Positions 1-33,384 of a stretch of 64,000 nucleotides of DNA are shown here, piece by piece. Made by a program: the position numbers and the translations under genes. The number at the start of each line of letters is the position of its first letter. Position 1 is the stretch's first letter. This DNA is from Cyanidioschyzon merolae. Taxonomy: Eukaryota. The notes below the pieces were generated by a model that saw only the letters and a list, made by a program, of their open reading frames with translations, was not told the origin of the DNA and made no database searches. The DNA is taken from NCBI GenBank assembly GCA_000091205.1, contig AP006498.2; one strand, written 5' to 3'.

Positions 1-284
1 GTGCAAAATGCATCGGATGAATCCTATTCTAGTCTTTCAACGGAGTTTTGTTTGACCACCGCTGCGGTGTTGAGCTGGAGATCGAAATCACTATCCAATG
101 TACTGTATGGATCGTTGATGAATTTCATGTAGGATATATGCTTTACTCAAGAGTACGGGGAGGATTGCATTTCAGTCTGGGTTCAGTTATAAAATAGTAC
201 GCAGACTGTTGAGGAACACTGAAGGAAACAAGTATACGTGCTCCGCGCCAAAAACACGTTATCCTTAAACACGGATTGTGGTCA

Positions 285-2090
285 ATGGTAGAGAACCGGT
301 CCGTTGAACGCCCTAAGCAAAGCGTTTCCGACGATGGTAGTCGCCATGGACGTCTCTATTTCTCAACGGCACGTTCGTGTGATCGGAAAAAAACTGTGAT
401 ACAGTCGTAAAAAAGTCCTAGTGCATGAACTAATATCTTGCACCGAAATCGCAGCGACAGAATTCCTCGCATCTTGCGATAGCTAAGAAGCACAGGGACG
501 TCGATTTGTTTCTTCATTCGATGAGACTTGCTTCGGATGAAACCGTTGGAGCGTATATGGGTATTCGCGGAGCAGGGCGTCCGTTGTATGCACGGTCGAA
601 CTCGAAGAGAACGATGGTATCATAACCTGTTCTAACTTTGATGGATACATTTGGCGGCCTCAATTTCGCTTGTAATGAAGGTTCGTATAACAGCAACAAC
701 CACTTTTCCGAATCATAGAAGACATTTCCCTGTCGTCGGACGACGTCATTCTACTGGACGAAATAGTAATTCCCTACTCCATTTGCGTTCGAGCTTTTAC
801 CGATTCTATTGGGCTAGAGGTGCTTTTCATTGCGCCGTACTCTCCGTGGGTCATCCCCATCGATCGATTGTTTGATATCGTGAGAAGTTATGATAGCTCC
901 GCTGGGCGACTTGATGAATCATCAGCTCGCCTGATACGGGGGCACATGTCATCTTCTTCTGCAAGTCCTTCGGCTTCAGGGAAGGTCCTCACCTAAAGTC
1001 ATAAAAAATTGCGTTCATTGTCAAAAATAAAAATCCAAGGAATGCGATGGGGAGTGCACTTTAGAAGGTCGAGATAGAGAGCAGGCGGCGGAGCGCTTCG
1101 GCGATAGAAAAGCACAGAGAGCTGATTAAGCAGCAAATGGACAGAGGGCACGAGTTCGAGGACACCTTGCACTGGTAAGTTCCACCAGAGGCAATAAAAG
1201 CATGGAGTTCGTGAACGGAGAATTTAACGCCGCCATTAATGGCAGATGTGCGATGCTGGTGAAGAGACCCGAGGTGATTTTTTTCATATGACAAAACGTT
1301 TAGATTGATCATGGATCCCAGAATTCGGAAGAGATAATGGCTTTCAGGGAAGCGTCCATCATGAAGGACCCACCTTCAAGTTCCATCACTCATACGTCCT
1401 CTCGGATATACAGGTCGTTTCGTATGTTCTATCATGCGCCGAGTGCCTGGCGTGAACGCTCACCGTAGCGCCTATATACCGCTGAAGTAGATGCTGCACG
1501 GAGACAGAACGGGTTTGCCGTACCACTGAGGGCGTCGGCTCGAGGCGTGCTATATCCGACACGGAGCCGGACTACAAAATCATTCTGGGAGCCTGCAAAC
1601 TGTGCTGACAGACCTACTGCCTGCGGCAGCGCGATGCAATATACTAGGAGTCCACTGCGACCAGGGCGACGCCCAGATGCAGCTTTGCTGCGTCTACTCC
1701 CAGAATGAATTGCGTTCCAGACGAGCAGCTCAGGTTTCTTTAAAGAACCCACCACTGGAGGCAGCATGAAGCGCTAGCTAGCCCCGCAGACTCGTCCGGC
1801 TCGCGGGACCTTCCGCCTAGAGGGTAAATTTTCGAAGATACGGAAACTTTTCGCCATTTCAACGCTAACTATCAAGGTCGATAGAAACTGTTATCGATTT
1901 GCTAGTTAGCGGTTAGTTTCTGTTCTGTCACCCGAGGTGATGACGCAATACAGCTTTGTGAGACAGCCTCTCAGGCTCGAAGTATATTGGGATAAACTGA
2001 AACCGATAGCAGGCGACCGGTCAAAAAACCTGGGAGGGCCTGTGAGGGGGTATATATATGCACTCTTTGGTGGCGAAACGTTTTCGCTCC
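285..2090 (+). mobile_element. Composite repeat E1 (family C+B): non-autonomous TnpB/Fanzor-derived element, interrupted by a ~650-bp insertion at ~1312-1967
   Basis: 285-1000 is nucleotide-homologous to 31052-31500. 1030-1310 ('aaaaataaaaatccaagga...GNKSMEFVNGEFNAAING') and 1968-2090 ('gtgagacagcctctcaggctcg...') match 23650-24150 and 31540-32000. The RuvC-III motif is degenerate (RD->GE). Confidence 0.45.
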
Positions 2091-2218
2091 ACTGATCATC
2101 CACAGGTTGCTCTGCTCATGCGATTGCACGTGAGGATGCATCGTGGTTCCGCGTGATGCCCCACGCTACAGAGTCATCCGGGCGGGATGTGGGAGCTCGA
2201 AAGCACGTGATCGCTCCT

Positions 2219-2465
2219 GATTGGAAAGCATCTCATATATGCAGGGTACCAGTACGACCGGAAGTTTTCTTGTGCGTTCATAGCACTTCCAATTGGGAAG
2301 CATCTCATATATGCACGGTACCAGCAAGACAGGAAGTTTTCTTGTGCGTTCATAGCACTTCTGATTGCGAAGCATCTCATGTTTGCAGTGTACCAGTAAG
2401 ACAGGAAGTTTTCTTATGCTTCCATAGCACTCCTCATTGGGACGCATCTCACGTATGCACATGGT
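2219..2465. repeat. 72-bp tandem repeat (minisatellite), ~3.5 units
   Basis: The unit 'attgggaagcatctcatatatgcacggtaccagcaagacaggaagttttcttgtgcgttcatagcacttc..' recurs head-to-tail with a few substitutions per unit. The 135-aa ORF over it shows the matching periodic peptide repeat. Confidence 0.8.
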
Positions 2466-2650
2466 GCTCGAGCTGGCGGTTCCGAGCGATGCACCTCTTC
2501 GATAAGAGGCAGCGTAGGCTTGCTCAGACTCTGTTTGCGCCTTACCCTCAAGGAGCGTAGACTGGATTCGCTTGCCAGTGGTGCTTCCGAACTCTATGTA
2601 AATCGGAATTCAGAGTGCGGTGTCGGCCTAATTACCGCCTAAATGCATGA

Positions 2651-3905
2651 GTGATTGGAATGGAACATGGAACTGGTCGCCATGTTCCTAAATTTCGGAT
2701 TTTTCCGAACTTTGTTTCGTGGCACTGCCACCGCATTCGGAGTGCAGCAATAAGGACTTTTGGATTCATGCATAGTTTTCAGGTTTTCGGTCATTTTTTG
2801 GAATGGTTCCTTTGACGCTGTGCTGCTGAATTTCGTTAAGATACGGTCCTCAGGTGGATTCGCGACGTCCTCGAACAACGGTTCGAAGAATGGCCGGTTT
2901 TATCATCCCATTCAGGCGTGCAAGAATGCACGCTTCTCTTGTCCTCAGGCACAGCATGCGCAAAATACATATTCTTCTTTTTTTGATCCATCCGTTTGAC
3001 GGTTTCGCGTAGGCGCCGCACTTCGCACTGGTAGGTGCTCAAGGCAAAATCTTGACGTCTTCGCTTGAGGACTGGTTCGCGAGCTCATACCGAAAGTTCA
3101 CTGAACTTGGTACGTCAAGTAACGGATTTTGCTGGAAATGCAAATCCTCCTTTCTTGAAGGCAATCGGCGGAACGGGACGCAACAGCAGTTAGGTGTCGC
3201 CCTCGGGATATGCTCGCTGAACGCTCCCCTTCCTCTTTTGTTCGTGTGGCAAAGGGTTATGTGCTCGGATATGAGCCCTGACAAAGAACGCTTTCAGTGG
3301 AGCGCGCGTCACAGCTTTACATGAACGAGGCGTAGACGGATCGAAGCTTCTCGAATTGTCCTCCGACTTTGGGTTTTGTATTCAATACTTGTTTCATCAT
3401 GAGCAACGTCGCGTTCCACAGATCCTTTTTCGGATAGAACGGCGTACCGAGGAGTGTGCAGTGGACAACCTACTCACCGAGGGACTTACCCTGAAGAGGC
3501 TCGTAATCGTCCTGTACGGTATTGGGCACGGAAACGAAGGAAGGCATCAAAGGGCGCGCATTGAACCCGTCAAGGGTATATAACGGGCAATGAAGAGAGC
3601 GCTCTCGCGCTCAAGGGCAGCGCCCGAAGGACGAGTAGGATTAGCAAGAGGTGTACTGGTCCCATTGGAACACCTAACAGCAGTCAACTGCCACCGCTAC
3701 GAAGCCGGCTTTCAGGCTTTATGCACAGATGATGAAAATGGCAAGTCAAGCGTAGCTCGCAATTTCCACCTGCACATGAAATGCATAGACAAGTTCCCGA
3801 AGCGGTAAAACCGGGACATGCACACTGCCATCAGCATCCTTCGACTGATAATAACAGAGCTGGGAGACAAGAGAGATCGGTGTATTTAGGGCCGGAGACA
3901 CAATA
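2651..3905 (+). mobile_element. Family-A compact TnpB/Fanzor-like element, copy A1 (degenerate)
   Basis: It begins with the shared terminal motif 'ATTGGAATGGAACATGGAACTG'. 3300-3900 is homologous to 11680-12245 and 54500-55035 at the nucleotide level. The C-terminal coding remnant is '...LHMKCIDKFPKR' followed by 'RDMHTAISILRLIITEL', a CxxC-like motif plus RuvC-III 'D..AI.IL', broken by stops and frameshifts. Confidence 0.5.
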
Positions 3906-4266
3906 GAGGTCCAGGGAGCACTCATGGATGAGGCCTCCAAAGGCCGCTTTTGACGGCACTGAGTGCTATCTAAATATTAGTGTGCACGGTCGAGTTAGAC
4001 GATCCGTTCCATTTTATTCTTGCATGGGTATAAATAGATGAGCATGTGAGTCGAACCACCGCTAACAGGAACTCGAAATGCTCTGGCGGCGGTCCGGGTG
4101 CACTGGTCAACAAGTGACGCCATGGCTTACGCCACGAAAGGTAAAACCCGTATTGGGATGATCTGTACGGTCGCTTTCGGGCTCGGGTACCCTAGAAGCT
4201 TTGCGTTCCGTTCGTGCGCTTCGTTGCCTGGTTGTGAGTTTTCTATAGGTACGAGAAGCTCAGCGA

Positions 4267-5865
4267 ATGACAGACAACGATGCGCTGCGAGCGAAGAGCC
4301 TGCGAGCCCCCCGAAGTGTTGCCCCTGCCGGTGTGCGTTACAGCAACTGGCAAGTCAAGGTAGAGAGCCCGCGAGTGCGCTATACTGATGAGTTCATCTA
4401 CGCAGACTTCGAGTGTGATGAGGTGAAAGCATGTCCTAACGACGAGAAGAAGGAAACAATTGTGAGGACGCTGAGAAGAAAGCTTCAGTTCAGGACGGCG
4501 ATTCGCCCTCCGCGCCTGGGGCTGCTTCTCGTGGGCTGGGCTGGAAATAACGGTTCCACACTGACGGCAGCTCTGATCGCTAACCGTGAAAACATTTGCT
4601 GGCAAAGCCGGTGTGGAGTTTGCAAACCGAACTTTTATGGTTCACTGACGCAGTGCGCAAGTATGCACATCGGTTATGATGGTGGCGCTGATGTTTTCGT
4701 GCCGCTCCATGCCGTTGTACCGCTCGTGCATCCGAAAGATATCGTCGTTGGGGGCTGGGACATTTCCTCCGTAAACTTGGCCGACGCTCTTGAGCGAGCG
4801 CAGGTGCTCGAAGCAGATCTTCGCCAGCGCCTTCGACCGTTTCTGGAGCATCAGAAGCCCTGGGCGGGGGCGATGGACCCTACGTTTATCGCCCAAAACC
4901 AGCTCGGTCGCGCGGACAACGTCATATCAGGTAGCAAGTTCGAACAACTGGAAAAGCTACGAGAGGACATCCGAAGCTTCAAGGCAAAACACGGTCTTGA
5001 GACAGCGGTTGTGGTATGGAGTGCGAATAGTGAGCGGTACTCCGAGCTTTCGCCAGGGGCCGCCCACGATCCGGAACTTCTGCTTGAGGCCATCCGGAGG
5101 AATGAAGCCGAAGTATCACCGTCGATTCTATATGCTGTCGCTGCAATTCTCGAGCGCTGTCCATATGTGAATGGGTCTCCCCAAAATACACTCATCCCTA
5201 GTGTAGTGGAATTAGCTCGACGACACGCGATCCCTGTCAGTGGAGACGACTTCAAATCCGGCCAGACGAGGCTCAAGTCAGTACTCGTCGACTTTTTTGT
5301 CGGTTGTGGCCTGAAACCGCGAGCTATCGTGACCTACAATCATCTCGGAAATAATGACATGTACCAACTCACTGACGGCACCATGTGGAAGCCGAAAGCC
5401 GTCGCAAAATCTGGCGTTCTCACGGATATTGTGCAGAGTAATGGAGCACTGTACCCGAACGGCGAGGAGCCCGACCACGTCGTTGTTGTCAAATATGTTC
5501 CGTTTCTTGGGGACTCCAAACGAGATGTCAGCGAATACACCAGCGAGGCATTCATGGGCGGTCTCTACACGAACATCATCCACAACGAGGCGTTGGACTC
5601 TGTGCTCTGTGCTCCCTTGATTCTTGACACTGCAGTGCTGTGCGAACTCTTGACACGTGTCTCGTGGAGAGATTCCCCGAGTGAGGCGTATCAGCCGATG
5701 GATTCGGTGGCCGTTGCTCTAAGCTTCTTCATGAAAAACCCGGTGATGCCACACGGACTGCCGGCCGTGAATGCGCTCTGGCGGCAACGTCAATGTTTAG
5801 AGGACTTGCTGCGCGCCCTGGTTGGCCTCGGACCGCATCACGAGCTGCAGTATATGCTCGCTTGA
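4267..5865 (+). CDS. INO1: myo-inositol-1-phosphate synthase (eukaryotic type)
   Basis: Uninterrupted 532-aa ORF with the MIPS hallmarks GWGGNNGST(L)TA, NGSPQNT and SYNHLGNNDG-like region, and full-length collinearity with eukaryotic INO1/ISYNA1. Confidence 0.93.
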   Translation: MTDNDALRAKSLRAPRSVAPAGVRYSNWQVKVESPRVRYTDEFIYADFECDEVKACPNDEKKETIVRTLRRKLQFRTAIRPPRLGLLLVGWAGNNGSTLTAALIANRENICWQSRCGVCKPNFYGSLTQCASMHIGYDGGADVFVPLHAVVPLVHPKDIVVGGWDISSVNLADALERAQVLEADLRQRLRPFLEHQKPWAGAMDPTFIAQNQLGRADNVISGSKFEQLEKLREDIRSFKAKHGLETAVVVWSANSERYSELSPGAAHDPELLLEAIRRNEAEVSPSILYAVAAILERCPYVNGSPQNTLIPSVVELARRHAIPVSGDDFKSGQTRLKSVLVDFFVGCGLKPRAIVTYNHLGNNDMYQLTDGTMWKPKAVAKSGVLTDIVQSNGALYPNGEEPDHVVVVKYVPFLGDSKRDVSEYTSEAFMGGLYTNIIHNEALDSVLCAPLILDTAVLCELLTRVSWRDSPSEAYQPMDSVAVALSFFMKNPVMPHGLPAVNALWRQRQCLEDLLRALVGLGPHHELQYMLA

Positions 5866-10997: not shown

Positions 10998-12250
10998 ATT
11001 AGAATGGAATACTGAACTGCATGCTCGATTCCTGCCTTGCGGATTCATTCCCGAACTTTTGTCATGTATACAGCTTCGATATCTGTAGTCCATGAAAGAG
11101 CTCTTTCGGATGCGAATGCGTCTTCGGACTCGCAATCGTCCATTTCGGAGTGACTCCATCGGCGCTGTGCTGCTCGAACTCAAAAAGTCACCGAAATCAA
11201 GACGATTCTCGACGCAGCAGAACGACGGTTCGTAAAATAACTGGTATCGTTATCCGACGCGCACGAACAAGCCTCCACTCTTGTCTGTTCCCTAGGTGTA
11301 GCATGCTCAGATCACGCAAGCTCCTAGTTTGCCGATCTTTCTGTTTTCAGGCAAATCGTAGAGACGGCAGTTGGCGCCGCAGGGATGGCGATCAGGAAAC
11401 TCAACGTTGTCACTTGACGGCTTGTTCACAAGATGGTGCCGAAAGCTCACTACACTTTTCATGTCTAATAATTGATTCCGTTCGAGCGACACATCCCGCT
11501 CTCTTCATGCCTATCGACGAGACTGAACTCGACAGCAGCCGCAGCAGCCGCAGCATGCTTCTGACGAGGTATGATCCCAGAGGCGTTCGTGTCTTCTGCT
11601 TCCATGGAAAAGCTTCTTGGACTCGGACGTCGATCATCGCAGCGACCGCTTCCATTTGCGAGCGGATCACCGGTTTGCACGAAGGGAGCGTAGACGGATC
11701 GAAATAGCTCGACTTGTCCCCGAGCCCGTATTTTCCTTCCGGTACTTGTTTCACCTTGGACAACACCGCGTTCCCCAAATCGTCTAAAGAATGGAGCAGC
11801 ATGCGCTTGTGCGTGCAAGGGACGGAGCACTCGCCGGCGTATTGTCCAGAACGGGCCCGTGATCGTTGGGTACGGCACCGGGTACGGAAACGGAGTAGCG
11901 CATGCTGGGCGATGCTTCTCCACTCGGAAAGGGCTTGTGCCAAGCGAGGCATTGTTCATTTATGCGCCAGGGGGCAGCGATCAGAGGAGGCATTGCGGGC
12001 GTATTGGAACACCTGGCCACAGCCAAGCGTCACCGCTGCGAATGGCGCACCCATTCTGTCTACGAAGACGGTGGAACTGGCAAGCGAAGCGCAGGTCGCA
12101 GCTTGAACCTGTTCGTCAAGTGCGCCAACAAGTACCGGAAGCGGGTGCATTGGGACGTCAAATCTGCCATCAACATCCTTCGGCAGCTGATAACGGAGCT
12201 GGAGCGACACGAGAGACCGGCATATTTCAAGCCGGATGCGCCATAGAGGA
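10998..12250 (+). mobile_element. Family-A TnpB/Fanzor-like element, copy A2 (degenerate), forming the outer end of the left palindrome arm
   Basis: It starts with the terminal motif 'ATTAGAATGGAATACTGAACTG'. The C-terminal peptide '...GKRSAGRSLNLFVKCANKYRKRVHWDVKSAINILRQLITELE' matches the TnpB zinc-finger plus RuvC-III pattern (FxCxxC..H.D.NAAINI). The reading frame is broken upstream, switching between frames 0, 1 and 2. Confidence 0.55.
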
Positions 12251-12637
12251 ACAAAGAGCAGTCGTAGATACCGCGGGCAAAGGCTGGTGTCGTAGGTGAG
12301 AACTGGATGAGACCCAGTATAATGATTACATATGCCCGAGTTTGTTAAGTGGAACGTTTCAATTTATTCTGAAATGGACGTAGGGCATCGATGTCCTTCA
12401 TCAAGCACCTTGTGCAGCACAGAAAATGAACCAGAATTGTTCGCTTGTGTGTCGAGGCGGCAAACTCCTCCGCACAATATCCCCGGCCGAAATGCTCTCA
12501 CACGGGCTCAGAGACATCTCTCTGGCATTGACATCCGATGCTCCAGGCTAGCTCGTACTAGGTGGCGCACTCTTCTAATACGAGACAGCAGACATGCACG
12601 TGTGTTGCACCGAGCGACAACGCGCCGGCGACGTCCT

Positions 12638-14014
12638 TCAGTAGCCCAGGTACCTCACTGGGGGTTTCTTCTTCCGACGTGTGCCGTCTGCGAAGCCGTC
12701 CCGACGATCATCGGTTTCATCGCTATCACCGCGTAGGTCGTGCACAAACCCCCGGAGGCTGGCCATCACTTTGTGGGCTTGGCGTCGCAGTTCAGCAGCG
12801 CGAAGCTGCTCGAATGCATCGTAGGTTCGCGAGCCGCTCGTTCCGACATCCCGCGGTCTACGCCGCAAGTGCTGAAACTTTTGCCATCCAGGAACCGCCT
12901 CATACCGGTGATCGCGCATAATTGGAAAGCAGTTGAAACCCTCCTCGCCGGGAAGTGGCTCCTCCGCAATAGACTCAATGGTGGGCAGTTTGATGCAGTG
13001 GTCATCCACCATCGTGGCAAAATCTACGCGTTGACTCGACAAATAATCGTCAAAGTCCAGGCTGTCAGGCGCAATGCGAAATACATTGGCAAGCTCGTCT
13101 GCGACATGCAGCCAGCCAATGTAGATGAGAAAAACAGAAAGCACGTAAATAATGTCCAGCCAGCGATAGTTTCCAATATCGATGCTGCTGGACGTTGCGC
13201 TCAATAAATTCAGATTTCCCGCGAGCAGTATGACACAAATCACGTAGATGCGCACTGTTGCGTTCACGAGCTGGCGGTACATCAGCGGAACTGGAACCCA
13301 CATGGGCACATATAAATAACCGAAATATCCGCGCACGAGCGCAAGCTGCTGCACAAGCTGAAGATGAACGAATTCCGTGATGCCGTAGCGGTGGTTCTGA
13401 TCACGCAGGCGAGAAAGCAAGTGCCCAGCCCACATGACTGGCATCGTCCACTGGGCTCTGTCTACATCATTCTCCAGCCGGTATCGCTCCTCAGGTGTGA
13501 TCAAGCCAATACGTTCCATGGCCTCAGTGGTGCGGTACGCATGATCACCGCCAAGAAAAACATCGCGAAGCACCATAGCGAACGGAATGCAGATCCACCG
13601 GACAATGAGTTGCTTCAACCGTGCAGCGCCGATAGGGTCGTTATCATCATACACGAAGGACGTCATCTCGAGAGCAATATTGTAGGCAGCGATTTGGCCA
13701 GTGCCACACATGACAACACGAACACTCCACCAACGGGAATAGATTGTGCTAGTATAAAACCCCAGCATAAAGGTAAGAATTGGCGAAAGGACACTGACAA
13801 GTGCTGCGAGAGTATTCAGGAAGGGTATCGGCCATTCTGCAACGTAGAGCTTGAGCGCTATCACGAGCACTGCGGCACCGATCCAGGAAAGAAGTTCAAA
13901 GAGCAACCGCTGGACCAATGAGCCGTACCAATGAAAGAAGACTCTAGTCCATGAAAGGGGAAATACATAGTCTTTCCCGAACGTGGCTATGGGATCCTTG
14001 TAGTAGATTGTCAT
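12638..14014 (-). CDS. Bestrophin-family (RFP-TM) anion channel, copy 1 (identical to copy 2)
   Basis: 'ILTFMLGFYTSTIYSRWW', 'PVPLMYRQLV' and 'YIGWLHVADELANVFRIAPDSLDFD' align with the bestrophin TM2 (VLGFYV..RWW) and C-terminal ([23 protein letters not shown]) signatures. It is predicted to have several TM helices. Confidence 0.85.
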   Translation of the reverse strand: MTIYYKDPIATFGKDYVFPLSWTRVFFHWYGSLVQRLLFELLSWIGAAVLVIALKLYVAEWPIPFLNTLAALVSVLSPILTFMLGFYTSTIYSRWWSVRVVMCGTGQIAAYNIALEMTSFVYDDNDPIGAARLKQLIVRWICIPFAMVLRDVFLGGDHAYRTTEAMERIGLITPEERYRLENDVDRAQWTMPVMWAGHLLSRLRDQNHRYGITEFVHLQLVQQLALVRGYFGYLYVPMWVPVPLMYRQLVNATVRIYVICVILLAGNLNLLSATSSSIDIGNYRWLDIIYVLSVFLIYIGWLHVADELANVFRIAPDSLDFDDYLSSQRVDFATMVDDHCIKLPTIESIAEEPLPGEEGFNCFPIMRDHRYEAVPGWQKFQHLRRRPRDVGTSGSRTYDAFEQLRAAELRRQAHKVMASLRGFVHDLRGDSDETDDRRDGFADGTRRKKKPPVRYLGY

Positions 14015-14476
14015 CTCTGGGAAACAAACGTGCCGCGTACCAGGTAAAGGCGTCGCTGGCCTGTGGAAACCTCTTCGGGCTCTTCAAATACGCACAAACA
14101 CCGCTTGGGTGCTTGCGCAACTCTGATTTGTGCTTTGGTCGTCGAACGGGGACTCGCTCGCTCTTGAACAGCAGCCGCACTCGAGCCGTGTGCACGTTTC
14201 CAACCTACGAAAACGCGAACTCCCGCTTCCAGCAGGTATCCTGATCTTGTTGCCTCTACGGTCAGGACGCGCAGTAAGCCTGGTTCACGTACGTACCGAC
14301 TATTTACCGGTGATAGTCGTCCGATCGCAGTGAGACCTACGGCGTCCCGTGTGTTTCGCAATCTGTCTGCAATAGCCGTTAGACAACCTGTTTATGGTTG
14401 CTTTGTGGCTCTGTGGCAAACACACACGCCGACACCGAACACTTTCCAAAAGTCGAACGACGCCAGCGCTGTACAG

Positions 14477-15033
14477 TACTGGCGAGAAGCCCGCCCTAGA
14501 CAAGAAGTCTCCAGCTGACGTACGGACGCCTCCCAGTCTTCATGGACCGGGCACCTACTACTGCTTCCAATTGTTTCTCATATAGTTCCACTTTGGGAGG
14601 TTGCCCCCACAAAATTCTCTCTTGTCAGCGCTGGAGGTCTGCTTTCCAGCACCGCACATCTCCTGATATTGATGGCGGCATTAAAGTCTCGGTTCACAAA
14701 CTCCATACGTTTCTTGCCATCACTGGTTGTACTCACTAGTGCGAGTAGCCCTCGAACTTTCGCCCTTGTTTCCATTTGCTCCTCCGTCAGCGGTCCGTAC
14801 TTTTCTATGTCTTCAGGGCTCCGCTGGCACTTTTCCATCCCGACCCTCTTAAGTACGCACCCCAGTTCATGGTGTGTATAGGACGTTCGGAACCCATCTA
14901 TCGGTATCGTAACAAAACGCTGTGCGCACTCCCTGTATGTTCTTGTCGACGGAGCTGGTACACATTCTTTTTGGGTCTTCCATCGCCCTGCTCCGTATGC
15001 CACTACGAGCCTCTGACGCTCGTCCTCCTTCAT
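14477..15033 (-). pseudogene. Partial inverted copy of the 3' half of the central TnpB/Fanzor-like gene, including its conserved 3' tail
   Basis: The 181-aa ORF 14578..15123(-) shares '...KEDERQRLVVAYGAGRWK...EFVNRDFNAAINIRRCAVLESRP...SQSGTI' exactly with the 233-aa ORF at 15272..15973(+). The copy stops at the arm boundary. Confidence 0.7.
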
Positions 15034-15099
15034 AATCCATTTCCGTCTTCGATATTGTACGTGACGAAGCATGAAGATGAGAAGGAGGCGGGTCCTGCG

Positions 15100-16080
15100 A
15101 CGCAGAAAGTGCATGAGAACCACTTTGTCGTTGGCGCGGGCCCTGGGAACACGAATATCATGACCATCACAACACGCCGTTGTGGGGATGATGGCGTCGA
15201 CGGCAACTTACGTCAAAAAACACACGCGTGTTTTAAAGCGCTAAAGAACGAGATATTACCGAGAGTTCGGTGTGATGAATGCAAAGAAGAAAAGTGGAAC
15301 GTGGAGTGCTGGAGTGAAAAAGCACCTGGAAGCGATCAGCCAGGTGACGAGCCGAGAAGCGGACTTTAAAGCTTTTCGGAAATTCATGGAAGTTCGTGTT
15401 GCTCACTGGGATGCGCTGTGGGAGGGGCATACAAAGCCCCGGTGGGCTCGTCTGCGAATGAATCTATACTGTGGCAAGCAGCGCGCATTCGCGAACTTTT
15501 TCAACCAGCTGAGCGCCGTGAAGGAGGACGAGCGTCAGAGGCTCGTAGTGGCATACGGAGCAGGGCGATGGAAGACCCAAAAAGAATGTGTACCAGCTCC
15601 GTCGACAAGAACATACAGGGAGTGCGCACAGCGTTTTGTTACGATACCGATAGATGGGTTCCGAACGTCCTATACACACCATGAACTGGGGTGCGTACTT
15701 AAGAGGGTCGGGATGGAAAAGTGCCAGCGGAGCCCTGAAGACATAGAAAAGTACGGACCGCTGACGGAGGAGCAAATGGAAACAAGGGCGAAAGTTCGAG
15801 GGCTACTCGCACTAGTGAGTACAACCAGTGATGGCAAGAAACGTATGGAGTTTGTGAACCGAGACTTTAATGCCGCCATCAATATCAGGAGATGTGCGGT
15901 GCTGGAAAGCAGACCTCCAGCGCTGACAAGAGAGAATTTTGTGGGGGCAACCTCCCAAAGTGGAACTATATGAGAAACAATTGGAAGCAGTAGTAGGTGC
16001 CCGGTCCATGAAGACTGGGAGGCGTCCGTACGTCAGCTGGAGACTTCTTGTCTAGGGCGGGCTTCTCGCCAGTACTGTAC
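15100..16080 (+). pseudogene. TnpB/Fanzor-like RuvC nuclease pseudogene (family B, long copy) at the palindrome centre: RuvC-I-like block, bridge, RuvC-II-like, degenerate zinc finger, RuvC-III, plus a conserved 3' non-coding tail
   Basis: In the frame of ORF 14776..15369 the sequence 'HFVVGAGPGNTNIMTIT' corresponds to TnpB RuvC-I 'aGvDvGikdfaivT' with Asp replaced by Gly. After a frameshift, the 15272 frame reads 'KKKSG..SREADFKAFRKF' (compare TnpB 'RRKKGS...NKRQDFLHKL'). 'VAHWDALWEGH' sits at the RuvC-II position with E replaced by D. 'IPIDGFRTSYTHHELGC' is a degenerate 'TSxxCxxCG' motif. 'EFVNRDFNAAINIRR' is an intact RuvC-III. Confidence 0.6.
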
Positions 16081-16536
16081 AGCGCTGGCGTCGTTCGACT
16101 TTTGGAAAGTGTTCGGTGTCGGCGTGTGTGTTTGCCACAGAGCCACAAAGCAACCATAAACAGGTTGTCTAACGGCTATTGCAGACAGATTGCGAAACAC
16201 ACGGGACGCCGTAGGTCTCACTGCGATCGGACGACTATCACCGGTAAATAGTCGGTACGTACGTGAACCAGGCTTACTGCGCGTCCTGACCGTAGAGGCA
16301 ACAAGATCAGGATACCTGCTGGAAGCGGGAGTTCGCGTTTTCGTAGGTTGGAAACGTGCACACGGCTCGAGTGCGGCTGCTGTTCAAGAGCGAGCGAGTC
16401 CCCGTTCGACGACCAAAGCACAAATCAGAGTTGCGCAAGCACCCAAGCGGTGTTTGTGCGTATTTGAAGAGCCCGAAGAGGTTTCCACAGGCCAGCGACG
16501 CCTTTACCTGGTACGCGGCACGTTTGTTTCCCAGAG

Positions 16537-17913
16537 ATGACAATCTACTACAAGGATCCCATAGCCACGTTCGGGAAAGACTATGTATTTCCCCTTTCAT
16601 GGACTAGAGTCTTCTTTCATTGGTACGGCTCATTGGTCCAGCGGTTGCTCTTTGAACTTCTTTCCTGGATCGGTGCCGCAGTGCTCGTGATAGCGCTCAA
16701 GCTCTACGTTGCAGAATGGCCGATACCCTTCCTGAATACTCTCGCAGCACTTGTCAGTGTCCTTTCGCCAATTCTTACCTTTATGCTGGGGTTTTATACT
16801 AGCACAATCTATTCCCGTTGGTGGAGTGTTCGTGTTGTCATGTGTGGCACTGGCCAAATCGCTGCCTACAATATTGCTCTCGAGATGACGTCCTTCGTGT
16901 ATGATGATAACGACCCTATCGGCGCTGCACGGTTGAAGCAACTCATTGTCCGGTGGATCTGCATTCCGTTCGCTATGGTGCTTCGCGATGTTTTTCTTGG
17001 CGGTGATCATGCGTACCGCACCACTGAGGCCATGGAACGTATTGGCTTGATCACACCTGAGGAGCGATACCGGCTGGAGAATGATGTAGACAGAGCCCAG
17101 TGGACGATGCCAGTCATGTGGGCTGGGCACTTGCTTTCTCGCCTGCGTGATCAGAACCACCGCTACGGCATCACGGAATTCGTTCATCTTCAGCTTGTGC
17201 AGCAGCTTGCGCTCGTGCGCGGATATTTCGGTTATTTATATGTGCCCATGTGGGTTCCAGTTCCGCTGATGTACCGCCAGCTCGTGAACGCAACAGTGCG
17301 CATCTACGTGATTTGTGTCATACTGCTCGCGGGAAATCTGAATTTATTGAGCGCAACGTCCAGCAGCATCGATATTGGAAACTATCGCTGGCTGGACATT
17401 ATTTACGTGCTTTCTGTTTTTCTCATCTACATTGGCTGGCTGCATGTCGCAGACGAGCTTGCCAATGTATTTCGCATTGCGCCTGACAGCCTGGACTTTG
17501 ACGATTATTTGTCGAGTCAACGCGTAGATTTTGCCACGATGGTGGATGACCACTGCATCAAACTGCCCACCATTGAGTCTATTGCGGAGGAGCCACTTCC
17601 CGGCGAGGAGGGTTTCAACTGCTTTCCAATTATGCGCGATCACCGGTATGAGGCGGTTCCTGGATGGCAAAAGTTTCAGCACTTGCGGCGTAGACCGCGG
17701 GATGTCGGAACGAGCGGCTCGCGAACCTACGATGCATTCGAGCAGCTTCGCGCTGCTGAACTGCGACGCCAAGCCCACAAAGTGATGGCCAGCCTCCGGG
17801 GGTTTGTGCACGACCTACGCGGTGATAGCGATGAAACCGATGATCGTCGGGACGGCTTCGCAGACGGCACACGTCGGAAGAAGAAACCCCCAGTGAGGTA
17901 CCTGGGCTACTGA
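16537..17913 (+). CDS. Bestrophin-family anion channel, copy 2 (identical to copy 1)
   Basis: 458 aa, 100% identical to 12638..14014(-), with the same bestrophin motifs. Confidence 0.85.
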   Translation: MTIYYKDPIATFGKDYVFPLSWTRVFFHWYGSLVQRLLFELLSWIGAAVLVIALKLYVAEWPIPFLNTLAALVSVLSPILTFMLGFYTSTIYSRWWSVRVVMCGTGQIAAYNIALEMTSFVYDDNDPIGAARLKQLIVRWICIPFAMVLRDVFLGGDHAYRTTEAMERIGLITPEERYRLENDVDRAQWTMPVMWAGHLLSRLRDQNHRYGITEFVHLQLVQQLALVRGYFGYLYVPMWVPVPLMYRQLVNATVRIYVICVILLAGNLNLLSATSSSIDIGNYRWLDIIYVLSVFLIYIGWLHVADELANVFRIAPDSLDFDDYLSSQRVDFATMVDDHCIKLPTIESIAEEPLPGEEGFNCFPIMRDHRYEAVPGWQKFQHLRRRPRDVGTSGSRTYDAFEQLRAAELRRQAHKVMASLRGFVHDLRGDSDETDDRRDGFADGTRRKKKPPVRYLGY

Positions 17914-18306
17914 AGGACGTCGCCGGCGCGTTGTCGCTCGGTGCAACACACGTGCATGTCTGCTGTCTCGTATTAGAAGAGTGCGCCACCTAGTACGAGC
18001 TAGCCTGGAGCATCGGATGTCAATGCCAGAGAGATGTCTCTGAGCCCGTGTGAGAGCATTTCGGCCGGGGATATTGTGCGGAGGAGTTTGCCGCCTCGAC
18101 ACACAAGCGAACAATTCTGGTTCATTTTCTGTGCTGCACAAGGTGCTTGATGAAGGACATCGATGCCCTACGTCCATTTCAGAATAAATTGAAACGTTCC
18201 ACTTAACAAACTCGGGCATATGTAATCATTATACTGGGTCTCATCCAGTTCTCACCTACGACACCAGCCTTTGCCCGCGGTATCTACGACTGCTCTTTGT
18301 TCCTCT

Positions 18307-19559
18307 ATGGCGCATCCGGCTTGAAATATGCCGGTCTCTCGTGTCGCTCCAGCTCCGTTATCAGCTGCCGAAGGATGTTGATGGCAGATTTGACGTCCCA
18401 ATGCACCCGCTTCCGGTACTTGTTGGCGCACTTGACGAACAGGTTCAAGCTGCGACCTGCGCTTCGCTTGCCAGTTCCACCGTCTTCGTAGACAGAATGG
18501 GTGCGCCATTCGCAGCGGTGACGCTTGGCTGTGGCCAGGTGTTCCAATACGCCCGCAATGCCTCCTCTGATCGCTGCCCCCTGGCGCATAAATGAACAAT
18601 GCCTCGCTTGGCACAAGCCCTTTCCGAGTGGAGAAGCATCGCCCAGCATGCGCTACTCCGTTTCCGTACCCGGTGCCGTACCCAACGATCACGGGCCCGT
18701 TCTGGACAATACGCCGGCGAGTGCTCCGTCCCTTGCACGCACAAGCGCATGCTGCTCCATTCTTTAGACGATTTGGGGAACGCGGTGTTGTCCAAGGTGA
18801 AACAAGTACCGGAAGGAAAATACGGGCTCGGGGACAAGTCGAGCTATTTCGATCCGTCTACGCTCCCTTCGTGCAAACCGGTGATCCGCTCGCAAATGGA
18901 AGCGGTCGCTGCGATGATCGACGTCCGAGTCCAAGAAGCTTTTCCATGGAAGCAGAAGACACGAACGCCTCTGGGATCATACCTCGTCAGAAGCATGCTG
19001 CTGCTGCGGCTGCTGCGGCTGCTGTCGAGTTCAGTCTCGTCGATAGGCATGAAGAGAGCGGGATGTGTCGCTCGAACGGAATCAATTATTAGACATGAAA
19101 AGTGTAGTGAGCTTTCGGCACCATCTTGTGAACAAGCCGTCAAGTGACAACGTTGAGTTTCCTGATCGCCATCCCTGCGGCGCCAACTGCCGTCTCTACG
19201 ATTTGCCTGAAAACAGAAAGATCGGCAAACTAGGAGCTTGCGTGATCTGAGCATGCTACACCTAGGGAACAGACAAGAGTGGAGGCTTGTTCGTGCGCGT
19301 CGGATAACGATACCAGTTATTTTACGAACCGTCGTTCTGCTGCGTCGAGAATCGTCTTGATTTCGGTGACTTTTTGAGTTCGAGCAGCACAGCGCCGATG
19401 GAGTCACTCCGAAATGGACGATTGCGAGTCCGAAGACGCATTCGCATCCGAAAGAGCTCTTTCATGGACTACAGATATCGAAGCTGTATACATGACAAAA
19501 GTTCGGGAATGAATCCGCAAGGCAGGAATCGAGCATGCAGTTCAGTATTCCATTCTAAT
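18307..19559 (-). mobile_element. Family-A TnpB/Fanzor-like element, copy A2' (mirror of A2) at the outer end of the right arm
   Basis: Reverse-complement duplicate of 10998-12250. ORF 18305..18649(-) encodes the same '...FVKCANKYRKRVHWDVKSAINILRQL' peptide. Confidence 0.55.
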
Positions 19560-23154: not shown

Positions 23155-23649
23155 TGCAACCGTCTAGCGAATCGTCTCCGAGAAACCAGAAATTAACAGT
23201 GATTTAAGAATCGGAGATGCAACGAAGAAAAGTTACGCAACAATATTCACTGTACACAGTTGTCCAGGATCGTCTACAGTGCATGTGCATGCACGCGGTT
23301 CCGAGATGACGCCTCGGCACGCAGCAATGCATGGCGTTTCGGGTTGCCTGAGTGGCGGCGCAATCAGCATCGCGGCAAGCGCCCGCGATAGGCGCAGTAT
23401 GCCGAGAACTCTTTGCCCGCAGACAAACAACTAATCTCTATGTCGAACGGAGGGACTGTTCTTGAGCTAGTGGAACGTTGAAGCGTCTGAAGTAATACGC
23501 AACTATGATGGAATTGAGCAGCATTGTGAAGTGCATTGGAGGTGTTCGTTCAAGTTTTCTTGTCATAGTTTTTCACCTAAATTGTGTTCCACTCCTCCGG
23601 TGCGTGTCATCAAATGCGTGTTCGCGGTTTATAGCGGATTCGTTCGAAG

Positions 23650-24150
23650 TAGGTTCATTTCCAAAAATAAAAATCTAAGGATCAGGTATCGACATGCAAG
23701 GCGGGGATCCAGGAGGACCCTCATCACTGGCTGCCTGAGTAAAAAACGAAACAAATCCTCTTCTCGCCGATCATCGAGCGAAGAAGAGCAAGTGACCAGG
23801 AAGAAAAAGGCGAAGAAGATGACGATGAGAGATCGGCGAGAAAATGTATTTGGTCAACGGAACGATGACGTCCCTTTGGTGGCAAAGAGGGCTCGCGTTC
23901 TGACAACTATTTTAAAGGTGAGCTCAACCAGAGGCAATAAACGCATAGAGTTCGTGAACCGAGACTTCAACGCCGCCATCAATATCATGAGATGCACGGT
24001 GCTGGAGACGAGACCCGAGGAGCTGAGGCGATCCAAGTTTGTGAGGCAGCCTCTCAGGCTCGTTCTGTGCATGAATAAACCTAAATCGATAGCAGGGTCG
24101 CGGTCGAACAGGGCAGGGACGCGTCTACGGGTGGGTATTCACGCACCCTG
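23650..24150 (+). mobile_element. Family-B short non-autonomous TnpB/Fanzor-derived repeat, copy B2
   Basis: It begins 'ccaaaaataaaaatctaaggat' like 1030. 23740-24140 aligns with 31610-31990 ('...tcatcgagcgaagaagagcaag...', '...cagcctctcaggctcg...'). It encodes 'KRIEFVNRDFNAAINIMRCTVLETRPEE' (RuvC-III) with no upstream RuvC-I or RuvC-II. Confidence 0.55.
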
Positions 24151-26272
24151 CTTGCTCGTGGGACTTTGTTTCTTTCATTGACGATAACAGTGACGATAAT
24201 CACGGACAGAATATCCACCTGTGTGCACTTTGTAAAGCTCCTGAAACCTAGGCCACAGTCGAGTAACGAAGCTCATTGTCTACCGTTCAGGGTAGATCAA
24301 GAGACAGACTTCGGGGTCGGCGTGGACCCGGGAGCTGCAGGATGTCACGCCCGATTTTTAACCTCTGAATGAGGAGGCCGGCGCCAAAGACCTACTCGGA
24401 AGGAAGCTGACCCTGTTCAAGCTTTCCAGGGCAGGGGATTATCGAGATTCGGGCATAACGTTCGCCAGCAGGGATACCAGCAAGTGGAACGACGGCGTCC
24501 GGGCCCGACTCTCGACGCTCTGGACACCGTATCGAGCAGACGGGGGCATGCTTTGCACGCTTGATTCATAGATCATATGAGCCTCAAAACGTCTCCTGCG
24601 GGCGGTCTTTGGCAGCAGTACACACGGGCGCGCGGGGTCGGAAACCGATTCGGTTGAACGGAGGCAGCCATCGTGTATGCGCCAACTTGTCAGATGTGTT
24701 CGAACGAGAAATGATCGACACGTCGCGCTGTTTCGCGGAAGCCTAAGGCGCTGGACGTGGTTTAACGCGCATGAATGCGCTCCTACTCTTCGACCAGAGC
24801 GTGCAACGAGTGCAGGAACCGATCCTCAACGATACCCCAGCCCTGAGTTCGGGACGGCGTGCACGCATCCCGAGCACAGGTGCATGCTGAAACTGGTAGC
24901 AAAGAAGAGACGGAAATAAAGTTGGATGCTCGAGCTGGTGTACGGTAAGCTGACTGTGTGTCAGATGGCGAGCGAGTCGCAAGTGCGACGCGTGCTACAA
25001 TCTGAGTCCACCGCCATCCATGAGAGAAAGCAACTTCTGCACCGATATCTCAAAGCCTTGAAAAGCGTACGGAAATGTCTCGTGCCTCCGAAGAGTTCGG
25101 TGGCTTTGTGTGGCGCGAGCTTTCGGGAATTATTTCGTATCCTATCCATGCATTGTGCTGAAACACAGAAGAGTATTTATAAAAAATCAGGGCCAGGAGC
25201 GAGGGGGCGGCCTTCGTTTCTCGCCCGGAGCAAGGCTCTGGTATGGTACGATTCAGCTACCGAACGACATTGGTGCACCGTACACATACATCGTCAATGA
25301 TTTTCCTCGGCAACTGATACACCATTATTTGAGACGACGAATATAGAACAGAGTCAAATTGATGGATCAAAGCAGGTGAGCGGGGGCATAGACCTTGCGT
25401 TTCCGCAGACGGATTCCGGATGATGCCGCTTGTGTGATTTTTTCGTTGACAAGTCGCCCGCAGGGGACACGAACCTCCAAGTTCCCACAGAGAGGACACT
25501 TTGAGGCCAGTGCTGGACCGCACGGCCTGCAAGACCTGTGTTCGCTCCATACCCCTGTAGTATCTCCTATGGACGTGCTTTCCACGACTTATTCTGTCCA
25601 AACGAGCGTTTGCCCACAAAGATCTGGTCCATCAAAGTTGAGTTCAAGGCACAAGCGCAAGTAAAGCCAATTTTGGGCCCTGTACAATATGCAGGTGGCC
25701 TTCACAGCATACGCTTCGTTCCTCGTTTACGACGCGGCGAACGAGTGCTTCCGCGGAGGCGACCACGCACACAACCCCTGAAACTGAGCAGCTACAAACT
25801 GCATTAGTGGACCTGGAAGACCTGTTTCTCCTGCTTTGTATTCGTCTCGTCATCGAGCCCAGCGTATTCAGTAAACTTCCGTGCAAGTCACGGTTTACGT
25901 GCAGGTTTTCTTCGTAGACTCCGCCTTGTCCTGGAGAGTTTACGCTCGATTACGAGCAGCCTCGTAGGTAAACTTCGAAACAATTCGCCATTTACGTGCA
26001 GATGCCTATCCAGATGCTGCGACGTCCTGCTGAAATCACTCTCGTAGACGTGCAGTTTCGTGCAGGCCGCCCCTAGTTCTGTTCGAACTCGCGCGTCCAG
26101 CAGCGAGCCTCGTTGCTGAGCGCTGCGCTCGGCACCGAATGCCTCTGCGGCTTGCACATGCTCGCTCAGAAGCGTTCGTGTTGCACTGGGGGGTTCATCG
26201 CAGCGTACGCCAAGTCACTGTGACCAGATCATAACGTTTCGGCTTCCGCTACGCGGCTTATACGGTGAGTTC

Positions 26273-30275: not shown

Positions 30276-31051
30276 GGACGCAGTTTGTGGTCCGGCGCAC
30301 AAGGCAAGCCGCCACGCGTCCGCGCAGGCAACAACGTGCTCACGGGGAATACTGGCGTGTCGGTGCCGAGCCTGCGCGCGGCACTAGCGCCCCAGTCCAA
30401 TATGTCCATAAGATCTACTTGATTCACTAGATGTCAAGTTAAGGACAGGTATGAGACTGCTCCCAGGGGCACCCATCCGGATGCTACCGCTGATTAAGCG
30501 ACGCGTTCCGGTGTTCACGGGTGCATGGCTCGTCGAGCGGAACCCCTTTTCCCAAGGTCAGCGAATGCACTGCACAGCGCTTGGCACTTGCGCCTCGAGA
30601 CAGTTAGGCAGTTATCGGAGCGCTTGAGGCAACTTGGGGATCGCCAGCGGGGGCCAGCGTGCCACGACTGAACTTGGTGCGGCCGGCTGACTCGCCTATC
30701 GCCTCCGCCCACTGCCGGGTTCGGCATGGAGCCGAGGATGCTCGACCTTTCGCACTGCGCGGGTTCGAGATTTGTTTTATTCGGGTATTTGAACTGAAAT
30801 TTATTCCAGACCAGCTGATTCCACTCGAATGCTTTTCTGCAGTGTATGGCAGGAGATCCAAATCACGATGCAACGTACCGTATAGATCGTAGACGAATTG
30901 CATGCAGGATACATGTATGACTGAACAGCGCAGAGAAGAATGCGTTCGTACTTCATGTCAGTCATACGATGGTACCGTGATGGTTGAGGAACGCTGAAAG
31001 ATCTAAGTAGACGCGCTTCGCGCCAAAATCCGATATTTTTACAGACTGTTT

Positions 31052-32000
31052 GCGATCTGTGGTAGAAAACGACACGTTGATCACTTTACAGAAAGCAAAA
31101 GCGATGATAATAGGCGTCACAGGCATCTCTGTTTCGCAACAGCATGTTCGTTTGGTCTTGAAAACAGTCGGATACTGTCGCAATAAAGTCCTAGTTCACA
31201 CACGGTATCCTGCACCGAAATCCCAGCTACTACAGCGTCCCTAGAACGTCGTGATCGGTATGAAGCAAAGGAACGTCGGTCTGTTTTTCCCGACTCTATC
31301 GGGGAGTAGAGCTGCTTTTGATTCCTCCATACTTTCCATGGTTCCTCCCCATCGATGGATACTTTTCTATTGTGAAACGTGGTGATCGCTATACTGGGCG
31401 AGGCGCTGAGGTGTTAAGCATACCGTTACACACCGGGCCACATGACATCGTTCTTCCGCAAGACCTTCTTCTTCCCCAGGGAGATGGGTGCTCACCTAGC
31501 CGCATAAACAAGAGTATTCATTTTCAAGAAAAAACTATCGAAAGGAAAGTTTTGGGAACGAAAATCGGGGATACCACAAGGCCGTCATCGCGGAGTTCGA
31601 CAGCGAAACGAAAAAATTCTCCTCTCGTCGATCATCGAGCGAGGAAGAGCAAGCGACGAAGGTGTCAATGATACGCGAGAAAAGGTGTTTCCCCGACGGG
31701 ACGACGACGATACTGTATTGGAACTGAGGCGCAACTTCGAGGACATGCTCGATTGCTGAGTTCCATCAGCGTCAATACACGGACGGAGTTCGTGAACCGA
31801 GCCCTTAACAGTGCCATCAATACCAGACGACATGCGGTGCTCCAGAAGAAACCTGAGGAGATGAAGGGATACAAGTTTGTCGCACAGCCTCACAGGCTCG
31901 AAATATGTAGGAATAAACAGATACCGACAGCAGGTGTCCGGTCAAAAGGGGCTGGGAGGCGTCTGCGCGTTGGGATTCATTTACCCGAGCGAGCATCGAC
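31052..32000 (+). mobile_element. Composite repeat E3 (family C+B), same family as 285-2090
   Basis: 31052-31500 is homologous to 285-1000 (for example 'ggtagaaaacgacacgttgatcac' vs 'ggtagagaaccggtccgttgaacgc', and the 'tcctccccatcgatgg' block). 31540-32000 is homologous to 23650-24150 and encodes the degenerate 'TEFVNRALNSAINTRRHAVL'. Confidence 0.5.
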
Positions 32001-33384
32001 GGAGCGCGTTGCGCACCAGAAAACCATCCGCCACACCCAACTTGCAAAGGTTCCAGTTGGCCTCGGAGTCTCTGGATAGAGCCGGCGCGCTTCAGATACG
32101 AACGCACCCTTATGTGACTGCCACCCTAGCATATCACTGCGCGCCGCAAACCAGGAAACCCATCCACCGCCCCCGTCTAGCATCCATCAACGTTGCAAGT
32201 GCCAGCGGGCAAGCGCGCCGCACCCATAATCAATTAAGCGGGTGCGCCGCCTGCGCCTGCTGCCCCAGGAAACCCATCGCGCAAATATGCCACCCCGCAG
32301 GTCCCGCAAACGCGCACCCGAACGCGCCACCCCGCACGCCTTCCACGAAAGCACCCTCACCTTTCCTTCACCCTGAACTGAGACGGCGCGTCCCACACGC
32401 GCACTCTCGCGTCGACATACACGCGCGCTGCCCCCGCAGGGTGTCCATCCGTACATGCGCACACCCGCAGAGACATCCGCGTCGCACCGCACACGTCCCG
32501 TGCTGCGCACAGACGCTGCCGTCTCTGGCATGCATGGTGGCGTAGCAGCGCATCCACAGCGCGTGCGGTTATCGGCTGATCCGGCATCGGTGATCGAAGT
32601 GTCCATTTATGTCCATCGAGGAACTACTTCATCATTTTCGAACGATATCCAGCGGCCTTGATACCTGGCTGCCAGACACGTGTCCATCGGCAGCCGCGAT
32701 CGGCTCGCAGCCTTGTCGCTTGTGGGATGCGTGCATGCCGCCAGGCTCCGTAACGAGCACAAACGCTCCCAGTATGTGGAGCATGCGCATCTGCAATTCG
32801 TCGTATGCTTCCTTGTCTGTCTGAATGATCACGGACAAGTGTTCCCGAACAAATCAGTGCCTGGTTGATCTACCATCGATCGGGATGGAGAACCCGCCCG
32901 AGAGCCACGGCTGGTGCGCGTCATGCGTACTCGCTCTGCGCTGAGGCGCGTCCAGACACCCCAGTGGCATTGGGACGCGGCGCAGCGATCGTGGCGCGAA
33001 GGCTTGCGTTGTTGTAGCGAGCGCCTTCAGTGTGTCCAGCATCCCGAGATTCATTGGATAGAACTTACCCTCATTGTTCATAAACTGGTCTGGTGTTCGT
33101 CGGACGCCTTCGCGTATGGAGAAGGACGACTGTATCTTCTGCGTCTGCAGAGCGCATTGTCACATTCGAGGGACACTCGTAGCATGCATCCTTCTGAGAT
33201 GAAAAAATTGCATCCTGTCTGCAGCCATACGGATAAAGGTTCGCTTTGGATCACGCTCGTAGGTGTTGTCCTTATCACCATACGGATACAAGTTCGCTGT
33301 ATCATGCGCTCATGAGCGTCTATCTTGTCACTGCATTGATACAGGCTCGCCCTGGTACCTGTTTGCGAGGTGTGGTATTCGGCG

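Follow-up and report, generated by a model that had tools for sequence, protein, structure and literature searches.

What kind of mobile element has left three short, mutually homologous repeats in the genome of the red alga Cyanidioschyzon merolae is the question raised by a stretch of 64,000 nucleotides of contig AP006498.2, the whole of which is referred to below as the window. A sequence-only reading had taken these repeats, numbered here copies 1, 2 and 3 by position, for non-autonomous elements resembling MITEs (transposable elements of the miniature inverted-repeat kind), i.e., deletion derivatives of an element (“family B”) encoding a TnpB-like protein, preceded in two of the copies by an additional 5' part (“family C”). 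The analysis presented here makes it probable that copies 1 and 3 belong, in decayed form, to an old Tc1/mariner-type transposon family carrying the remnants of the start and the tail of a Fanzor1 gene.

The reference for the Fanzor portion is CMe-1A, described as an old Fanzor1 family of C. merolae with ~150 copies, ~80% identical to a 3169-bp consensus, without inverted terminal repeats and with the superfamily given as unknown (Bao & Jurka 2013, PMC3627910). The same source lists TE-N2_CMe, an unclassified repeat of 635 bp present in ~70 copies, to which the 5' 635 bp of CMe-1A are 95% identical (PMC3627910). The CMe-1A consensus was taken from supplementary file 2 of that paper; its Fanzor open reading frame (ORF) occupies nt 906-3110. 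In blastn comparisons, the consensus matched the copies situated in a palindrome of the window (see below) at 86-88% and other places in the window at 70-82%; hence, “family B” is CMe-1.

Similarity of the 5' Part to DDE Transposases

Copies 1 and 3 have in common ~1 kb of DNA upstream of the Fanzor leader, the A-rich segment preceding the Fanzor ATG in CMe-1A. As had been proposed, this 5' part is restricted to these two copies within the window, and no further copies of it were found there. The frame-0 translation of copy 1 (FDETCF...LLDEIVIPYS...APYSPWVIPID) resembles the DDE transposases of the Tc1/mariner/IS630 type. Taken alone, it matched the Pfam family DDE_3 at E=0.15, which is not significant; the protein search with this translation returned no homologs at E<=0.01, and the Pfam searches with single copies and with the intact ORF of a related locus, L089, returned nothing significant.

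A majority consensus of the 5' part was then derived from six copies found in the window and in related metagenome contigs. This consensus restores the motifs VDETSF, LLLDN and PPYSPWFNPIE, corresponding to the catalytic D, D and E (the last of these in NPIE), and matches DDE_3 with E=4.5e-21 and 75.7 bits (cut-off 28.6) over profile positions 4-136 of 146, along with a weak match to HTH_Tnp_Tc3_2 (E 0.008) at its N-terminus. Compared with the Mariner transposase of 308 amino acids (aa) from PUl-1, an element of Pythium ultimum, it aligned at 26% over 175 aa (E 3e-11) with all three catalytic motifs in register. An uninterrupted version of the transposase ORF, 234 codons long and with degenerate catalytic residues, is present in L089. 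Judged by these sequence comparisons, the 5' part is a decayed gene of a DDE_3 (Tc1/mariner/IS630-type) transposase.

Layout of the Three Copies

The presence of three homologous short copies was borne out by the self-BLAST of the window. Copy 1 matched copy 3 at 62-511 vs. 30837-31286 (70%, E 1e-46) and at 795-1031 vs. 31285-31534, and copy 2 at 1174-1274 vs. 23917-24020 (82%); the match between copies 2 and 3 comprised 23744-24141 and 31606-31979 (69%, E 1e-36). The limits proposed initially (285-2090, 23650-24150 and 31052-32000) proved too narrow, since multi-copy alignments extend the copies to ~32-2095, 23564-24181 and 30788-32020. The parts of the copies, together with the two reference copies of the palindrome, are collected in Table 1.

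Table 1. Coordinates in the window of the three copies, their parts, and the reference copies of the Fanzor1 family.
Feature	Position	Strand	Basis or remark
Copy 1, type I composite: transposase relic, Fanzor leader, 3' stump, nested transposable element	32..2095	+	~1.40 kb without the insert
Copy 1, “C” part: IS630/Tc1/mariner-type DDE_3 transposase pseudogene	32..996	+	One frame, 6 internal stops, TAA 994-996
Copy 1, A-rich leader preceding the Fanzor ATG in CMe-1A	1023..1041	+	Alignment to CMe-1A ~885-905
Copy 1, Fanzor1 3' coding stump, first piece	1042..1278	+	CMe-1A nt 2737-2971; CMe-1 residues 613-689
TE-N2_CMe-like element nested in copy 1	1279..1929	+	651 bp, begins with T7
Copy 1, Fanzor1 3' stump, second piece, and element 3' end	1930..2095	+	CMe-1A nt 2980-~3112, then ...CACTGA
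Copy 2, type II, Fanzor-only, without transposase part	23564..24181	+	618 bp; blastn to CMe-1A, alignments
Copy 3, type II composite: transposase relic, leader, N-terminal codons, Fanzor 3' stump	30788..32020	+	
“Family B” reference copy, 5'-truncated CMe-1A Fanzor1 pseudogene, palindrome arm 1	14461..15030	-	CMe-1A nt 2577-3145, blastn 87.7%
“Family B” reference copy, 5'-truncated CMe-1A Fanzor1 pseudogene, palindrome arm 2	15036..16090	+	CMe-1A nt 2093-3145, blastn 85.7%

All three copies align with CMe-1A by blastn: copy 1 at 76.6% (E 3e-43), copy 2 at 78% (E 5e-27) and copy 3 at 70% (E 2e-25). In copy 1, positions 1042-1269 correspond to CMe-1A nt 2737-2971, 1288-1926 to nt 3-634, and 1941-2037 to nt 2980-3077. 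Copy 2 consists of the CMe-1A 5' untranslated region from ~nt 787, the ATG with ~35 codons, and the last ~90 codons (with an intact NRDFNAAINI) followed by the 3' end; its blastn matches are 23565-23751 (nt 787-967) and 23918-24056 (nt 2871-3012). In copy 3, the transposase relic occupies 30788-31499 and has an internal deletion of 283 bp, the leader lies at 31517-31535, and 31719-31970 correspond to CMe-1A nt 2833-3088.

The protein tail retained in the copies is longer than the ~40 aa suggested before: according to tblastn, 90-125 Fanzor codons are kept, i.e., CMe-1 residues ~613-723 in copy 1, 643-728 in copy 2 and 628-729 in copy 3, and the alignment to CMe-1A adds the ATG region with ~35 N-terminal codons in copies 2 and 3. 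The motif at 1023-1041 and 23663-23681, regarded previously as the start of the elements, is the A-rich leader situated just upstream of the Fanzor ATG (CMe-1A ~885-905). It is thus internal, lying ~990 bp inside copy 1 and ~100 bp inside copy 2, and marks no terminus.

The RuvC-III segment EFVNRDFNAAINI is found at 23963-23986 in copy 2 and in both arms of the palindrome; its degenerate forms are EFVNGEFNAAING in copy 1 (at ~1205-1245) and EFVNRALNSAIN in copy 3. Of the triplet of this motif, copy 2 has the intact form NRD, copy 1 the altered form NGE and copy 3 the altered form NRA. The complete RuvC set (D...E...RD) with a zinc finger in one ORF does not occur in the stumps, from which RuvC-I and RuvC-II have been deleted so that only the RuvC-III region is left. 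In the translation of the Fanzor pseudogene of palindrome arm 2, the D of RuvC-I and the E of RuvC-II are both replaced by G. For the 233-codon ORF at 15272-15973, which harbors EFVNRDFNAAINI, the protein collection contains 228 relatives with 65-99% identity, nearly all of them from Joint Genome Institute (JGI) metagenomes.

The CMe-1 protein, CMe-1p, aligned with the Fanzor1 protein of PUl-1 at 23% over 255 aa (E 2e-6) in a segment spanning RuvC-II to RuvC-III. The Pfam family Cas12f1-like_TNB was matched by the family protein with E=0.24 only, and a phmmer search against PDB gave no match. The AlphaFold model was of low confidence (predicted local distance difference test score, pLDDT, of 53.7), and none of the Foldseek matches had an E-value below 0.29 (SpuFz: E=1.1). 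The Fanzor1 label is owed to the published classification (PMC3627910) and the pairwise match to PUl-1.

Subtypes, Junctions and Ends of the Family

At least nine paralogous copies, found in the window and in the related metagenome contigs, have a 5' limit, a 3' limit and a transposase–Fanzor junction in common. The composite copies comprise copies 1 and 3 and the loci L005/6, L067/71, L051/55/57, L072, L089, L090-93 and L094; they are 67-72% identical to each other at the DNA level, and several come from one sample. They are flanked by unrelated genes (INO1, SelR, DUF8361, adh_short, Cyt-b5 and others), and the transposase–Fanzor junction is identical wherever the downstream DNA of a copy is available. 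With these paralogs in unrelated contexts, common limits and a common junction, both the past mobility and the origin by internal deletion from a TnpB-like (Fanzor1) element, as proposed from the sequence, are upheld. The possibility that the copies are fragments of an ordinary gene family was examined as well; they turned out to be discrete elements with defined limits.

Two types of internal structure can be discerned. In type I (n=4: copy 1, L089, L090-93 and L094), the leader is fused directly to CMe-1A nt 2737; in type II composites (n=4: copy 3, L005, L067 and L055), the leader with ~35 N-terminal codons is fused at ~nt 2790. Type II also exists without the transposase part (n=2: copy 2 and L002), both representatives starting at CMe-1A nt ~765-790.

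Relative to CMe-1A, with which they have the leader, the ATG region and the C-terminal coding region in common, the copies form a separate sublineage marked by shared changes, e.g., a 3-bp deletion before EFVNRD present in all of them. They also miss ~1.8 kb of the ORF and end ~57 bp before the CMe-1A 3' end, and where CMe-1A has a TE-N2-type 5' module, the composites have the DDE transposase gene. In the 5' part, the copies are 79-83% identical to their consensus; the composite family is of the same age class as CMe-1A.

The homology boundaries are abrupt: the elements start at the TCTTTCAAC block and end at ...CACTGA. In copy 1, the multi-copy alignments place TCTTTCAAC at 33-41, preceded by a TA at 30-31, and the 3'-most conserved block, CTCCACTGA, at 2087-2095. 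In each of the seven copies that could be compared on the 5' side (7/7), a TA is located 0-3 nt ahead of the first conserved block. The positions of TA fit a TA target and suggest it without proving it.

Proposed History

The elements read, from 5' to 3' on one strand, as a ~300-codon DDE transposase gene, a Fanzor1 leader of the CMe-1 lineage, and an internally deleted Fanzor remnant with the 3' end. Two different breakpoints occur between identical flanks, which points to a full-length composite ancestor; this may have been a Mariner-plus-Fanzor1 element of the kind represented by PUl-1. Internal deletions of two kinds would have taken ~1.8 kb out of the Fanzor ORF, giving rise to types I and II, both of which would have retained the transposase gene and both ends. 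The shortened forms could then have continued to transpose by their own DDE cut-and-paste mechanism, probably into TA sites, leaving several copies each, and the Fanzor tail would have been retained owing to its place next to the element's right end. Copy 2 is type II minus the transposase, and copy 1 was struck later by a TE-N2_CMe element. Since both stump types have spread, a complete nuclease gene was apparently dispensable in cis.

Several observations weigh against this history. The match to Pfam reaches significance for the reconstructed consensus only and not for single copies, and two frames had to be joined manually to obtain the consensus protein; still, the DDE_3 match is too strong to be an artefact of this joining. 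On the 3' side, a TA is found in only six of ten copies, 2-6 nt past CACTGA. A Smith–Waterman comparison of the ends with shuffled sequences revealed no terminal inverted repeats above background in five copies and the consensus, and the repeat search of the ends found no terminal inverted pair; the copies being ~20% diverged, short inverted repeats could have decayed beyond detection. In ~0.5 Mb of the related contigs, the transposase was nowhere found beside a full-length Fanzor ORF. Finally, some type II copies have the transposase and others do not, while one junction is present in both types, which is at odds with a simple deletion tree, so that recombination between elements has to be invoked.

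Alternative Explanations

The view of the sequence-only reading, i.e., that the copies are MITE-like, non-autonomous derivatives of a TnpB-only element, lacking coding capacity of their own and mobilized in trans, is unlikely, even though most of the Fanzor ORF is gone from all copies and even though copy 2 (618 bp) and L002 have no transposase part and start at one 5' limit (CMe-1A ~765-790). For copies 1 and 3, the term does not apply: about two thirds of each is the decayed DDE_3 transposase gene, only the Fanzor passenger having been shortened, and the same relic fills ~1 kb of ~1.4 kb in at least six further paralogs. MITEs were understood here as non-coding elements of <~800 bp with inverted terminal repeats and a high copy number. 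Copies 1 and 3 are ~1.2-1.4 kb long and contain the transposase relic; copy 2 is short enough, but no inverted repeats were found in it and only one paralog was seen. In general, inverted terminal repeats were not found, the motif proposed as terminal is internal, and the copy numbers seen per subtype are in single digits. In P-MITE, no MITEs are reported for C. merolae (PMC3964958).

It is very unlikely that the Fanzor tail has been kept as the scaffold of a guide RNA (fRNA or omega RNA) together with the right end, the nuclease being supplied in trans by CMe-1A for homing or retention. This idea is attractive inasmuch as the fRNA of characterized Fanzors overlaps both the element's right end and the 3' end of the ORF (PMC10530073), and the last 90 codons at least, with the 3' end, are present in every copy whatever its internal deletion. 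Folding of eight stump tails gave one hairpin of 8 bp before the terminal CACTGA, with a double change in four of its pairs; it is weak (-6 kcal/mol), and its covariation term is +0.31. No convincing conserved fold was obtained with RNAalifold for 27 non-redundant CMe-1A tails, and the Rfam search yielded nothing above the threshold, only a sub-threshold chance match. The composite elements stop short of the last ~57 bp of CMe-1A and thereby miss its terminal hairpin, and the need to keep the transposon ends suffices to explain the retention of the tail.

The rate of change of copy 2 argues against the guide RNA as well. In the comparison with L095, a strain 99.3% identical, copy 2 displayed 14 substitutions per 618 bp, i.e., 22.7/kb, the highest value of the 9-kb neighborhood, outpacing every other interval compared, genic (1-6/kb) or intergenic (up to ~16/kb). 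Copy 2 contains an open frame of 216 codons, so a domesticated mini-Fanzor protein was considered as well. Over the 651-bp ORF, 17 substitutions were counted vs. L095, and of the codon changes 10 were nonsynonymous and 6 synonymous; this ratio and the top substitution density led to the rejection of such a protein. The transposase relics in the window all carry stops or deletions. All copies are by now pseudogenes that evolve neutrally.

A related and no less doubtful conjecture is that the mariner-type elements might be “guide-only” hitchhikers recruiting the CMe-1A Fanzor nuclease to cut empty sites and so to favor their own persistence or, in a milder version, that the DDE transposase mobilized the whole CMe-1 family. 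If true, the guide-only variant would mean that a eukaryotic DDE transposon parasitizes an RNA-guided nuclease in trans.

An origin of the repeats as side products when a bestrophin-containing region underwent segmental duplication, brought to mind by the 4-kb inverted duplication in the window and by the bestrophin paralogs adjoining the Fanzor copies of the palindrome as well as copies 2 and 3, is highly improbable and was rejected, as the homology ends sharply at the same limits in at least nine copies with unrelated flanking genes, and the copies differ in orientation relative to the bestrophin genes.

Relation to Known Elements

Internal-deletion derivatives of cut-and-paste DNA transposons and bacterial PATE-like derivatives of IS200/IS605 elements have lost the middle and kept the ends, and the short forms still amplify. 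The decayed Tc1/mariner-type family described here departs from them in that the passenger nuclease gene has been deleted and the transposase gene has not. Among its closest known counterparts are PUl-1 of Pythium ultimum and PGv-1, Mariner elements encoding a Mariner transposase and Fanzor1 (PMC3627910). The gene order and the strand are the same as in PUl-1, with a transposase of ~300 aa upstream and Fanzor1 downstream. At the same time, PUl-1 has kept its Fanzor ORF in full and possesses inverted terminal repeats of 24 bp and TA duplications, whereas the family from C. merolae has a Fanzor stump, inverted repeats that are not detectable, and TA positions that are suggestive.

Mariner–Fanzor1 composites, CMe-1A and TE-N2_CMe are already published. 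A literature search for Fanzor or mariner in Cyanidioschyzon found no report of a DDE transposase linked to the CMe-1 family, so the physical joining of a DDE_3 transposase relic to a Fanzor remnant of the CMe-1 lineage in C. merolae-type genomes may be new. This linkage also suggests a superfamily for CMe-1, published as unclassified. Otherwise, the elements are ordinary transposon debris, and all copies are dead.

The TE-N2 Element Nested in Copy 1

Nesting of elements was anticipated from the sequence and is confirmed by an insertion with a target duplication in copy 1. Its size had been estimated correctly as ~650 bp; its position had been given as 1312-1967, and the actual limits are 1279-1929. 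An exact 12-bp direct repeat, ACCCGAGGTGAT, brackets the insert at 1267-1278 and 1930-1941, and the uninterrupted insertion site is visible in the paralogous copies. The region 1288-1926 is 82% identical to CMe-1A nt 3-634, which is equivalent to TE-N2_CMe, and the homology extends over the full length of the latter. In the original description of TE-N2_CMe, the target duplications were undeterminable, whereas the nested copy has an exact 12-bp duplication and a T7 end; it may thus newly supply a clean target duplication for this repeat.

Runs of 5-9 T, often after GA, precede other TE-N2 copies in the related contigs (L004, L055, L058, L060, L063, L067, L068, L072, L076, L077 and L082). Together with the target duplication, these runs would fit TE-N2 as a retroposon with the poly-A tail on the opposite strand; a tRNA-like head was searched for in the insert and not found.

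Neighboring Genes and Other Repeats

The genes of the window include INO1 (4267-5865), malate dehydrogenase, SelR, CBF/Mak21 and four bestrophin paralogs; the ORFs are long and intron-free, and the G+C content is ~55%. No consequence of the repeats for the neighboring genes was seen. A transposon-rich island had been postulated directly upstream of INO1, and the upstream position holds for two of its members, copy 1 with the nested TE-N2 and a minisatellite at 2220-2460, which lies between copy 1 and INO1 and consists of 3.3 copies of a 72-bp unit with 86% matches. The remaining member, “element A1”, is a dispersed repeat found at 3286-3929, 11644-12269, 18282-18907 and 54979-55127 with 66-69% identity; the ORFs of its copies in the palindrome have no Pfam match.

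The bestrophin paralogs are located at 12638-14014 (-), 16537-17913 (+), 20133-21815 (+) and 28893-30302 (-) and are ~64% identical between the loci; a Fanzor relic or a composite element occurs within ~0.5-1.8 kb of each of them. The palindrome is an inverted duplication of 4 kb (10998-15032 and 15519-19559, 99.85% identity), in each arm of which a bestrophin gene is accompanied by a CMe-1A Fanzor pseudogene truncated at its 5' end; the arms join within the Fanzor ORF (CMe-1A nt 2577 vs. 2093). At the point where the window folds back, the metagenome contig L001, 99% identical, continues along the Fanzor gene; it stops exactly at the outer limit of the repeat. Either the palindrome is a fold-back duplication specific to the strain, or the assembly is at fault. 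Two non-orthologous loci (L007 807-1959 and L075 11-1703) likewise contain Fanzor fragments inverted head to head, with the join within the ORF, hence such junctions may be recurrent.

Three far older Fanzor pseudogenes with ~27-35% aa identity to CMe-1 and many frameshifts reside at 24184-25123, 43563-44514 and 51427-52533, the first of them beginning 3 bp past the end of copy 2. Directly upstream of two of the old relics is a 928-bp direct repeat (42642-43569 and 50221-51148, 98.7%), the ORFs of which have no Pfam match.

In the metagenome contigs, at least five loci display a CMe-1 3'-end fragment ~750 bp upstream of a CMe-1A core starting at nt 648-671, with a common alternative 5' module in between (fragments at L010 599-692, L029 216-311, L035 285-380, L056 287-382, L011 26-461 and L027 30-465). 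These upstream fragments may reflect insertion beside existing 3' ends or terminal direct repeats. Many CMe-1A copies of the metagenome loci L010-L088 harbor, in the Fanzor ORF before RuvC-I, one to six tandem units of 75-78 bp (consensus nt 2117-2196), which constitute a coding minisatellite of variable length (e.g., L028 1071-1372 and L036 2585-2886).

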